The position numbers were made by a program, and so were the translations under genes. Under the pieces are notes generated by a model, which was not told where the DNA came from, did no database searches, and saw only the letters and a list, made by a program, of their open reading frames with translations. Of a DNA stretch of 45,643 nt, positions 1 through 3,525 are shown one piece after another. The stretch comes from Escherichia coli (lineage in GTDB: Bacteria; Pseudomonadota; Gammaproteobacteria; Enterobacterales; Enterobacteriaceae), in assembly GCF_003334355.1 (NCBI RefSeq), contig NZ_QOWP01000030.1, one strand, 5' to 3'. The stretch's first letter is position 1. Each line of letters begins with the position of its first letter.

Positions 1-632
1 GCCTGCCGGGGCAGCAGTATGATGAGGAGTCCGGCCTGTATTACAACCGCCACCGCTATTATGACCCGCTGCAGGGGAGGTATATCACTCAGGATCCGAT
101 TGGGCTGAAGGGGGGATGGAATTTTTATCAGTATCCGCTGAATCCGGTTCAGTATATAGATTCAATGGGACTGGCATCAAAATATGGACACTTAAATAAT
201 GGCGGATATGGAGCGAGACCCAACAAACCGCCTACGCCCGATCCAAGTAAATTGCCGGACATAGCGAAACAATTAAGACTGCCATATCCTATTGACCAGG
301 CCAGTAGTGCGCCTAATGTTTTCAAAACATTCTTCAGAGCATTAAGCCCTTACGACTACACACTGTATTGCAGGAAGTGGGTAAAACCAAATCTGACTTG
401 TACGCCACAGGATGATTCCCAGTATCCAGGGATGGATACAAAGACAGCAAGTGATTACCTGCCACAGACAAATTGGCCAACAACTCAATTACCACCAGGA
501 TATACTTGTGCAGAACCCTATTTATTCCCAGACATTAATAAACCCGATGGGCCAGCAACAGCAGGGATAGATGATTTGGGTGAAATTTTAGCTAAGATGA
601 AACAGAGAACATCGAGAGGAATAAGAAAATGA
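1..632 (+). CDS. rhsO: Rhs-family protein, 3' portion (orphan Rhs core end plus C-terminal tip); 5' end lies outside the window
   Basis: Frame-3 reading from nt 3 gives [57 protein letters not shown], the conserved end of an Rhs core, continuing without a stop into the 155-codon ORF 165..632. Base composition turns AT-rich after about nt 165. Confidence 0.85.
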
Positions 633-1198
633 AAAGAGTTTTGTTCTTTTTGCTGATGATATTTGTTAGTTTTGGTGTTATAGCTGATTGCGAAATACAA
701 GCTAAAGATCATGATTGTTTTACTATTTTCGCTAAGGGTACTATTTTTTCCGCGTTTCCTGTCTTAAATAATAAAGCCATGTGGAGATGGTATCAGAATG
801 AGGACATCGGTGAGTATTATTGGCAAACAGAACTGGGTACATGTAAAAATAATAAATTCACACCAAGCGGGGCGAGACTCTTAATTCGCGTCGGGTCACT
901 ACGCCTTAATGAAAATCATGCCATCAAAGGAACGTTGCAGGAGTTGATAAATACAGCAGAAAAAACGGCGTTTCTCGGCGATCGGTTTAGAAGTTATATA
1001 AGAGCGGGTATCTATCAAAAAAAGAGCAGTGATCCAGTTCAGTTGTTGGCAGTCCTTGATAATTCAATCATGGTAAAATATTTTAAAGATGAGAAACCAA
1101 CTTATGCTCGAATGACAGCACATCTCCCGAACAAAAATGAGTCTTACGAATGTTTAATAAAGATACAGCATGAACTAATTCGTAGTGAAGAGAAATAA
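629..1198 (+). CDS. ybfC: Secreted protein of unknown function downstream of the Rhs tip; candidate cognate immunity protein
   Basis: 189-aa ORF whose ATG overlaps the rhsO stop (ATGA). N-terminus [19 protein letters not shown] looks like a cleavable signal peptide. AT-rich like the Rhs tip. Confidence 0.8.
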
Positions 1199-1279: not shown

Positions 1280-2571
1280 GCAGGGAAAGATCACGTAACG
1301 CTACTTTTTTGTACTAAATAATTCGCATTTTATGTTTAAAAATTGAGATACTCCTTATTACCTAAAGCTGTTTTTCATAGCTTATACATGATCAAATACT
1401 CCTTACATAAATAAGGTGAACAAATGGAACTTAAAAAATTGATGGAACATATTTCTATTATTCCCGATTACAGATAAGCCTGGAAAGTAGAGCATAAATT
1501 GTCAGGCATCCTACTATTGACTATTTTTGCCGTTATTTCTGGTGCAGAAAGTTGGGAAGATATAGAGGATTTCGGGGAAACACATCTCGATTTCTTGAAG
1601 CAATATGGTGATTTTGAAAATGGTATTCCTGTTCACGATACTATTGCCAGAGTTGTATCCTGTATCAGTCCTGCAAAATTTCACGAGTGCTTTATTAACT
1701 GGATGCGTGATTGCCATTCATCAAATGATAAAGACGTCATTGCAATTGATGGAAAAACGCTCCGGCACTCTTATGACAAGAGTCGCCGCAGGGGAGCGAT
1801 TCATGTCATTAGTGCGTTCTCAACAATGCACAGTCTGGTCATCGGACAGATCAAGACGGATGAGAAATCTAATGAGATTACAGCTATCCCAGAACTTCTT
1901 AACATGCTGGATATTAAAGGAAAAATCATCACAACTGATGCGATGGGTTGCCAGAAAGATATTGCAGAGAAGATACAAAAACAGGGAGGTGATTATTTAT
2001 TCGCGGTAAAAGGAAACCAGGGGCGGCTAAATAAAGCCTTTGAGGAAAAATTTCCGCTGAAAGAATTAAATAATCCAGAGCATGACAGTTACGCAATGAG
2101 TGAAAAGAGTCACGGCAGAGAAGAAACCCGTCTTCATATTGTTTGCGATGTCCCTGATAAACTTATTGATTTCACGTTTGAATGGAAAGGACTGAAGAAA
2201 TTATGCGTGGCAGTCTCCTTTCGGTCAATAATAGCAGAACAAAAGAAAGAGCCAGAAATGACGGTCAGATATTATATCAGTTCTGCTGATTTAACCGCAG
2301 AAAAGTTCGCCACAGCAATCCGAAACCACTGGCACGTGGAGAATAAGCTGCACTGGCGTATGGACGTGGTAATGAATGAAGACGACTGCAAAATAAGAAG
2401 AGGAAACGCCGCAGAATTATTTTCAGGGATACGGCACATCGCTATTAATATTTTAACGAATGATAAGGTATTCAAGGCAGGGTTAAGACGTAAGATGCGA
2501 AAAGCAGCCATGGATAGAAACTATCTCGCGTCAGTCCTTGCGGGGAGCGGGCTTTCGTAATCTTTCCCTGC
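1280..2571 (+). mobile_element. H-repeat (ISAs1-family) element, copy 1, bounded by inverted 10-mers cagggaaaga / tctttccctg
   Basis: About 1.29 kb unit. The terminal sequence ctttttgtactaaataattcgcattttatgtttaaaaattgagata and the whole ORF are repeated again starting near 2571. Boundaries are approximate. Confidence 0.7.
1424..2560 (+). pseudogene. ybfL: H-repeat-associated (ISAs1-family) transposase, inactivated by an in-frame TAA at 1475..1477
   Basis: ATG at 1424 encodes [17 protein letters not shown] then TAA; the same frame continues as the 353-codon ORF 1499..2560. The intact paralog at 2691 reads through with Q at this codon. ybfQ is the name I recall for the short N-terminal piece. 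Confidence 0.85.
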
Positions 2572-3525
2572 TTTTTGTACTAAATAATTCGCATTTTATG
2601 TTTAAAAATTGAGATATTCCTTATTACCTGAAGCTGTTTTTTATTGCTTATACATGATCAAATACTTCTTACATAATTAAGGAGAACAAAATGGAACTTA
2701 AAAAATTGATGGAACATATTTCTATTATCCCCGATTACAGACAACCCTGGAAAGTGGAACATAAATTATCGGATATTCTACTGTTGACTATTTGTGCCGT
2801 TATTTCTGGTGCAGAAGGTTGGGAAGATATAGAGGATTTTGGGGAAACACATCTCGATTTTTTGAAGCAATATGGTGATTTTGAAAATGGTATTCCTGTT
2901 CACGATACCATTGCCAGAGTTGTATCCTGTATCTGTCCTGCGAAATTTCATGAGAGCTTTATTAACTGGATGCTTGACTACCATTCTTCAGATGATAAAG
3001 ACGTCATCGCAATTGATGGAAAAATACACCGGCATTCTTATGACAAGAGTCGCCGTAAGGGAGCGATTCATGTCATTAGTGCGTTCTCAACAATGCACAG
3101 TCTGGTCATCGGACAGATCAAGACGGATAAGAAATCCAATGAGATCACAGCTATCCCTGAACTTCTTAACATGCTGGATATTAAAGGAAAAATCATCAAA
3201 ACCGATGCGATGGGTTGCCAGAAAGATATTGCAGAGAAGATACAAAAACAGGGAGGTGATTATTTATTCGCTGTAAAAGGAAACCAGGGGCGGCTAAATA
3301 AAGCCTTCGAGGAAAAATTTCCGCTGAAAGAATTAAATAATCCCAAGCATGACAGTTACGCAATTAGTGAAAAGAGTCACGGCAGAGAAGAAACCCGTCT
3401 TCATATTGTTTGCGATGTCCCTGATGAGCTTATTGATTTCACGTTTGAATAGAAAGGGCAGCTATGGTTAGAAACTACCTGACGTCAGTCCTTGCGGGGA
3501 GCAGGCTTTCGTAAATTTGTCCTGC
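2571..3525 (+). mobile_element. H-repeat (ISAs1-family) element, copy 2, with an internal deletion of about 300 bp
   Basis: Same left-end sequence as copy 1. The ORF stops at FTFE, then the C-terminal remnant MVRNYLTSVLAGSRLS follows (compare copy 1 ...[16 protein letters not shown]). Right end approximate. Confidence 0.7.
2691..3452 (+). CDS. ybfD: H-repeat-associated protein, C-terminally truncated ISAs1-family transposase
   Basis: 253-aa ORF about 90 percent identical to the copy-1 translation over its length. Probably non-functional as a transposase. Confidence 0.85.

Follow-up and report, generated by a model that had tools for sequence, protein, structure and literature searches.

The C-terminal tips of Rhs proteins are a main source of new antibacterial activities. 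The stretch of Escherichia coli DNA analysed here (the window; 45,643 nucleotides from contig NZ_QOWP01000030.1 of RefSeq assembly GCF_003334355.1) begins inside an Rhs gene and runs into a tip that matches no described family or solved structure, followed by the small gene ybfC. About two-thirds of complete E. coli genomes, including those of K-12 and O157:H7, carry this tip together with ybfC. The analyses below suggest that positions 3–632 of the window are probably the 3′ end of an Rhs polymorphic-toxin gene with ybfC as its cognate partner, the tip being an envelope-acting effector neutralised by exported YbfC.

The Rhs core continues in frame into a 152-residue tip

Translation of positions 3–632 on the plus strand gives a single open frame (frame 3) of 209 codons followed by a stop at 630–632. 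The first 57 codons (3–173) encode the 3′ end of the Rhs core. These residues match the last part of NF041261 (E = 7.7e-32, profile positions 1205–1261 of 1261) as well as TIGR03696, the Rhs-associated core domain, which scores 72.7 bits (cut-off 32.5). A first-pass annotation made from the letters alone had described the frame as continuous from the core into a Pro/Tyr/Thr-rich extension. Both points were confirmed: the 39-residue string that it quoted is present exactly, and 21 Pro, 13 Thr and 10 Tyr are found among the 152 residues of the extension.

The core ends in an aspartyl-protease/demarcation motif, DPIG-X18-DSMG-L, at 93–173, with DPIG at 93–104 and DSMG-L at 159–173. The published form of the Rhs aspartyl-protease motif is DPXGX18DPXG, and Tse5 is cut after the Leu that follows the second half of it (PMC10684867). 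Compared with that form, the motif in the window keeps both Asp residues and the 18-residue spacer and has Ser in place of the second Pro. By analogy, autocleavage is predicted between the Leu at 171–173 and the Ala at 174–176. The tip proper accordingly comprises 152 residues (174–629), beginning with ASKYGHL and ending with RGIRK. The length of 155 residues given previously is that of a mechanical open reading frame starting from an ATG at 165, within SMGL, and exceeds the tip that follows SMGL. An internal start at this ATG, which would make the tip a separate gene, was considered and dropped: no Shine–Dalgarno sequence was found upstream of it, and promoter-like sites are no commoner than in shuffled sequence.

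The base composition changes at the same junction, as is expected of Rhs tips. The GC content falls from 52.6% in the core (1–173) to 43.1% in the tip and 36.7% in ybfC, and the GC3 falls from 63% to 34% in the tip and 34% in ybfC (56% in phr, for comparison). The sharp drop towards AT noted in the first-pass annotation is therefore real, the resulting AT-richness of the tip being moderate rather than extreme. The tip is not a chance reading frame, because tip and ybfC DNA is found, at a coverage of at least 80%, in 3518 of 5426 complete E. coli genomes (∼65%); 2768 complete genomes have a best match with an identity of 99% or more.

The tip belongs to a small family without recognisable toxin signatures

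That the tip has no recognisable toxin family or fold was borne out by profile and fold searches. Searches with Pfam models left the tip and all of 22 members of its family unassigned, and NCBIfam and PADLOC recognised only the Rhs core. When the tip was used in a profile search of all PDB sequences, the best E-value was 0.72; sequence-profile searches of the PDB with tip and YbfC gave nothing below E = 0.4. Foldseek comparison of the tip model with AFDB50 retrieved only the tip's own family. Only close enterobacterial relatives were returned by a word-indexed search of 5.8 billion proteins, and an exhaustive HMM search of 1.84 billion cluster representatives yielded 28 tip-family proteins. 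A scan of 100,044 species genomes, one per species, with a trimmed 8-sequence tip alignment identified 10 tip loci.

Tip loci are present in Phytobacter, Acidovorax, Paracidovorax, Comamonas, Ralstonia and Burkholderia and on three short contigs of metagenome-assembled genomes (MAGs). The latter contigs (L018, L019 and L021; 1.4–2.4 kb) are labelled Flavobacterium psychrophilum, Candidatus Nanosynbacter and Erysipelotrichia, and their tip and ybfC sequences are 70–100% identical to enterobacterial versions; they are almost certainly enterobacterial contamination binned in unrelated MAGs. All the family members whose context was read are Rhs C-termini, either orphan fragments or the ends of open reading frames of more than 1090 codons, and full-length Rhs proteins carry the tip in Phytobacter, Acidovorax and Burkholderia as well. 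One locus adjoins VgrG, DUF2169 and PAAR genes and another lies downstream of a VgrG gene. Judged by its sequence, the tip is a putative effector domain, undescribed and very narrowly distributed, within the known kind of Rhs tip/immunity system.

The tip can be divided into two parts. The N-terminal part (residues 1–49; 174–320) is a Pro-rich linker that varies in both length and sequence among aligned homologues and has pLDDT values of 40–54 in the AlphaFold2 (AF2) model. The family alignments and the model together define a conserved core (residues 50–152; 321–632 including the stop codon), which is preserved down to 34% identity. Its conserved features are the motifs SPYDY, GYxC and A(T/G)AGxDD, a C-terminal amphipathic helix and a basic R-K end. 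Three Cys residues, C66 (369–371), C76 and C112, are invariant; the family alignments contain no conserved His and no invariant Glu. The model shows three strands and a helix at residues 132–148, with pLDDT of 80–86 for residues 60–122. A new fold is not proven by this model, which is only moderately confident (mean pLDDT 63). The tip is hydrophilic and basic (GRAVY −0.82, pI 9.1), and a 19-residue hydropathy scan, with a maximum of 0.14, detected no hydrophobic or membrane-spanning segment.

These features narrow the activities that may be considered. Cys-His amidases or peptidases, His-dependent metallo-enzymes and classical muramidases appear unlikely on sequence because the tip family has no conserved His and no invariant Glu; a Cys-His hydrolase was dropped for the former reason. 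A pore is also unlikely, as the tip contains no hydrophobic helix, and the pore former was likewise dropped as a candidate. A colicin-M-like reading of SPYDY was rejected too, since no colicin-type chain was found at E ≤ 10 among solved structures and the conserved His is missing.

YbfC is a conserved partner with a predicted signal peptide

The ybfC gene (629–1198, plus strand) encodes a 189-residue secreted protein that is the probable cognate immunity protein of the tip. Its start codon (ATG, 629–631) overlaps the tip stop codon (TGA, 630–632) in the sequence ATGA, and a Shine–Dalgarno-like GAGAGGA (614–620, plus strand) lies 8 nucleotides upstream of the ATG, inside the tip coding sequence. 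Consistently, ybfOC is given as one operon in a promoter-mapping table (PMC3946193). Residues 1–20 (629–688) form a classical signal peptide, with MKR followed by a hydrophobic core and GVIA before DCEIQ; the mature protein is encoded by 689–1195.

That ybfC is a conserved partner of the tip is supported by an HMM scan of the loci: each of the 13 independent non-E. coli loci has a YbfC homologue directly 3′ of the tip. In these loci the partner start usually overlaps the tip stop codon by four nucleotides, and the partner is strictly co-inherited with the tip and translationally coupled to it. In the five distant loci first examined, the partner is 21–33% identical to YbfC and has a signal-like N-terminus in each case; such an N-terminal hydrophobic segment is present on all the full-length YbfC homologues read, from both Gammaproteobacteria and Betaproteobacteria. 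Tip and partner diverge together, with tip identities of 34–39% against partner identities of 21–33%. Between the tip and ybfC there is no further gene that could encode an immunity protein, and the tip and YbfC families are similarly small. The sequences make it most likely that the tip and YbfC are a toxin and its immunity protein.

No Pfam family was found in YbfC or in any member of its alignment. The predicted structure of YbfC is an Ig-like β-sandwich, and the alignment has the invariant pattern C30...W52/W54...Y173-x-C175, which includes an invariant Cys pair. The Cys/Trp/Tyr-x-Cys pattern and the β-sandwich model resemble the pin of immunoglobulin V domains; profile matches to synthetic nanobodies are weak, with E of about 1 at best. 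Two YbfC-family copies follow a single tip in Comamonas sp. BIGb0152 (L009 4735–5976) and in a Ralstonia sp. MAG (L024 537–3072), those of Comamonas being 47% identical to each other, which suggests an accumulation of extra immunity genes. The sampled O157:H7 genome has a full-length Rhs protein with an intact tip, and its ybfC has a +1 frameshift in the T-run of the signal peptide; a second O157:H7 genome gives the same one-base-longer ybfC alignment. This arrangement counts against the interpretation favoured here, as an intact tip beside a frameshifted ybfC would not be expected if the toxin were expressed and self-intoxicating.

Most characterised Rhs tips act in the cytoplasm, as nucleases, ADP-ribosyltransferases or NADases. 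The present tip could likewise be a cytoplasm-acting toxin, in which case the signal peptide of YbfC would be incidental and YbfC would either intercept the tip in transit or not be the immunity protein. Among E. coli Rhs tips in particular, most of those characterised are nucleases or RNases (PMC6730261). The pI of 9.1 is like that of many nucleic-acid-binding toxins, and the ybfC frameshift of O157:H7 can be read, weakly, as a sign that YbfC is dispensable. A cytoplasmic site of action is nonetheless unlikely in view of the partner: signal-like N-termini recur on every full-length homologue read across two proteobacterial classes, the invariant Cys pair is retained, and no other gene between tip and ybfC could supply the immunity. 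The tip points in the same direction, having no nuclease, ADP-ribosyltransferase or deaminase motif or fold that the searches could find, and no conserved His. Action in the envelope is the reading preferred here, because every full-length partner read has a signal peptide and the tip contains neither a membrane-spanning segment nor a separate entry domain.

The tip is an orphan in some E. coli lineages and ends full-length Rhs proteins in others

The window covers the E. coli kdp-ybfA-rhsC-ybfC-ISAs1-ybgA-phr region, that is, the rhsC/ybfO-ybfC locus. Its first 1660 nucleotides match the K-12 locus at 98.8%, and the tip with ybfC (172–1198) is 100% identical to that of AML003_ev02. In K-12 the homologue is ybfO, an annotated pseudogene with rhsC and ybfB before it and ybfC after it. 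This orphan state, recognised by the ybfB-ybfO junction, occurs in 2639 genomes. Over 327 residues, K-12 RhsC shares 96% identity with YbfO, up to the tip junction, where the similarity stops. Such a pattern is predicted by the C-terminal displacement model, in which a new tip shunts the old one downstream to a silent position (PMC2935791).

Two copies of an ISAs1-family (H-repeat) transposase gene lie downstream in the window (1424–2560 and 2691–3452) and are about 94% identical over 886 nucleotides. The first has an in-frame TAA at 1475–1477 and the second, ybfD, lacks its 3′ end; the additional partial copy ybfQ/ybfL of K-12 is absent from the window.

The tip had been called an orphan in the first-pass annotation. 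This label is not established, since the window is cut inside the gene and since EC50, Ecol_AZ147, O157:H7 and AR_0015 carry the tip on full-length Rhs proteins. Over the window's first 25 kb, EC50 matches best (99.4%). Directly after ybfA it encodes a 1399-residue full-length RHS core protein that ends in exactly this tip: residues 1–1247 match the RHS_core equivalog NF041261 with 2645 bits (cut-off 2000) and residues 1248–1399 are the tip. The N-terminus of the EC50 protein contains DUF6531 (E = 4.8e-18), and the Pfam match to a PAAR motif is not significant (E = 0.18). Ecol_AZ147 and O157:H7 strain 8368 also have the tip on full-length RhsC, the O157:H7 tip differing from that of the window at 2 of 152 residues. 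In AR_0015 (L014 2274–7027), the tip–ybfC module, with 96.3% nucleotide identity, ends a full-length Rhs gene after nikR, which is the rhsB locus. Several NTF2-fold and DUF6258 immunity-like genes and another Rhs fragment come after the module there. A truncated fragment without the N-terminal delivery region, behind a full-length rhs gene that has an immunity gene of its own, is thus seen in K-12-type genomes and not in EC50, Ecol_AZ147, O157:H7 or AR_0015.

Related genomes show at least four states of the module, the fourth being that of FORC 064 and its relatives, the best matches over 3.6 kb, which have a 1118-residue out-of-register rhsC::ybfO fusion (L001 9276–12632). RhsC residues 1 to ∼660 are joined to the ybfO fragment through an 18-nucleotide overlap near L001 11263–11280, and the fusion deletes the RhsC tip, ybfB and ∼275 core residues. 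The junction is common to 44 complete genomes. About 835 tip-carrying genomes are neither of the K-12 type nor fusions, and the four of these that were sampled all have a full-length gene. The core adjoining the tip travels with the tip, and the pattern of insertion sequences downstream fails to separate the orphan, fusion and full-length states.

The tips of K-12 RhsC and YbfO are unrelated although the cores are near-identical, and the present tip occurs at both the rhsC and rhsB loci. From its presence on a full-length Rhs gene at the rhsB locus of AR_0015, the tip–immunity module appears to have moved between rhs loci within E. coli. The orphan arrangement is, by the sequences compared, one lineage-specific state of a module that elsewhere would be an armed tip.

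The orphan and fusion states bear on a second alternative, namely decay. The tip would then be a relic, an Rhs fragment that was displaced and silenced and is currently inactive, and ybfC would be a leftover. The pseudogene annotation of K-12 ybfO is in keeping with this, as are the displacement model itself with its silent positions (PMC2935791), a Phytobacter ursingii copy (L017) in which the tip end is frameshifted and the partner gene is split, and the 44-genome lineage whose fusion lacks part of the core. Against it, the tip frame is intact in the 2768 genomes with near-identical copies, the tip ends full-length Rhs proteins in E. coli, Phytobacter, Acidovorax and Burkholderia, and tip and partner are retained as a pair down to about 34% identity. 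The dN/dS ratios (Nei–Gojobori) are also low. For the tip, comparison with the rhsB-locus allele yields 0.10, that with O157:H7 0.19 and that with a homologue of 70% identity 0.37; the ratio for YbfC is 0.26, and all these values come from small substitution counts. The tip values suggest purifying selection, which would not be seen in a relic, and decay is accordingly a quite improbable account of the module as a whole.

The possibility that the module is no interbacterial weapon, and is instead an intracellular toxin–antitoxin-like pair made from internal signals or an anti-eukaryotic or adhesive cargo, is very remote: an in-frame ATG exists at 165 and a Salmonella orphan rhs reportedly acts like a type II toxin–antitoxin module (PMC7043789), but this ATG has no Shine–Dalgarno sequence, promoter-like sites do not exceed the shuffled level, a secreted antitoxin would be unable to meet a cytoplasmic toxin, and members of the family occur only as Rhs tips, two of them beside VgrG genes.

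A proposed mechanism

The interpretation favoured here, of an envelope-acting Rhs tip with YbfC as its exported antagonist, can be set out as a series of steps, the first of which draws on published Rhs structures. The C-terminal aspartyl protease of the Rhs protein (DPIG-X18-DSMG) would cut after Leu57 of the fragment, and the 152-residue tip of ∼17 kDa would be released but kept inside the Rhs cage. Where a full-length Rhs protein and a type VI secretion system (T6SS) are both present, the loaded Rhs would be fired into a neighbouring cell. At the E. coli loci read, no T6SS genes lie next to rhsC, so that we infer this route of delivery. The hydrophilic, basic tip with its three Cys residues would then act in the periplasm or envelope of the recipient rather than in its cytoplasm, possibly in a disulfide-dependent manner. 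Sibling cells would be protected by exported YbfC, probably a disulfide-pinned Ig-like β-sandwich, which may bind the tip directly. In K-12-type genomes the module would be a displaced orphan behind the newer RhsC tip, serving mainly as immunity and as a reservoir for recombination; in other lineages the same module would be the active tip. No report of toxicity, secretion, binding or function of the tip was found in the literature searched.

A more specific version can be offered only tentatively, with the chances somewhat against it. According to this version, the tip and YbfC form a new Rhs effector/immunity class, in which a small, disulfide-dependent domain with a new fold, neither a pore former nor a Cys-His enzyme, attacks the envelope from the periplasmic side and is countered by a secreted, Ig V-like and in this sense 'antibody-like' immunity protein. 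If true, it would provide a function for two long-standing K-12 y-genes in ∼65% of E. coli genomes.

A periplasmic site of action would have further consequences. The tip may then reveal a new vulnerable step in envelope biogenesis, with YbfC as a compact, exported inhibitor of the Ig-like type. Whether an E. coli lineage has ybfC, alone or together with an armed Rhs, would in addition allow a prediction of which lineages can kill or resist one another. The locus illustrates the displacement of a tip, its re-arming by recombination and its transfer between rhs loci, all within one species.

Comparison with known systems

The closest relatives of the system are the 'neighbourless' RhsA/B/C clade proteins of E. 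coli and their RhsI genes, which share the NF041261 core and the DPXG-X18-DXXG-L demarcation (PMC2935791). Also common to both are a tip that is swapped independently of the core, the break in composition, a small gene overlapping the stop codon and displaced orphans (PMC2935791). Unlike the tips described for that clade, the present tip belongs to no toxin clan described so far and lacks a Pfam model. YbfC is secreted, whereas the immunity proteins of nuclease-type tips are cytoplasmic. Delivery by a T6SS is presumed for this allele.

K-12 ybfO/ybfC and RhsC (z0847/z0851) with 'RhsCI' (z0853) of EHEC EDL933 are the same genes as those analysed here. The EHEC genes have already been listed, in silico, as a putative effector/immunity pair (PMC7216683), and this is the only paper found to treat the tip and YbfC in the literature searched. 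It gives only a weak threading match, to VipE (TM 0.574), and no motif for RhsCI (PMC7216683); a signal peptide of RhsCI, a definition of the family and a function are not reported there. In contrast to the orphan of K-12, the copies in the closest relatives of the window are not orphans.

Tse5 (RhsP1) from Pseudomonas aeruginosa is an Rhs effector of the envelope with a pore-forming tip, which is hydrophobic and inserts into the membrane. The tip in the window differs in that it has no hydrophobic stretch (maximal KD19 value 0.14) and no sequence similarity to solved structures. The two systems share the Rhs cage, C-terminal aspartyl autoproteolysis, a released tip of ∼16 kDa and extracytoplasmic action, presumptive for the tip described here (PMC10684867).

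The periplasm-acting T6SS effectors and their immunity proteins (Tae/Tai, Tge/Tgi and Tse1/Tsi1) differ from the present pair in two respects. The tip lacks a catalytic signature of the Cys-His or Glu type and matches those families in neither sequence nor fold, and it is part of an Rhs protein rather than a free cargo of Hcp or VgrG. The underlying logic is shared: an exported immunity protein with a signal peptide, of which Tai3 is a cited example (PMC7216683), implies a target in the periplasm.
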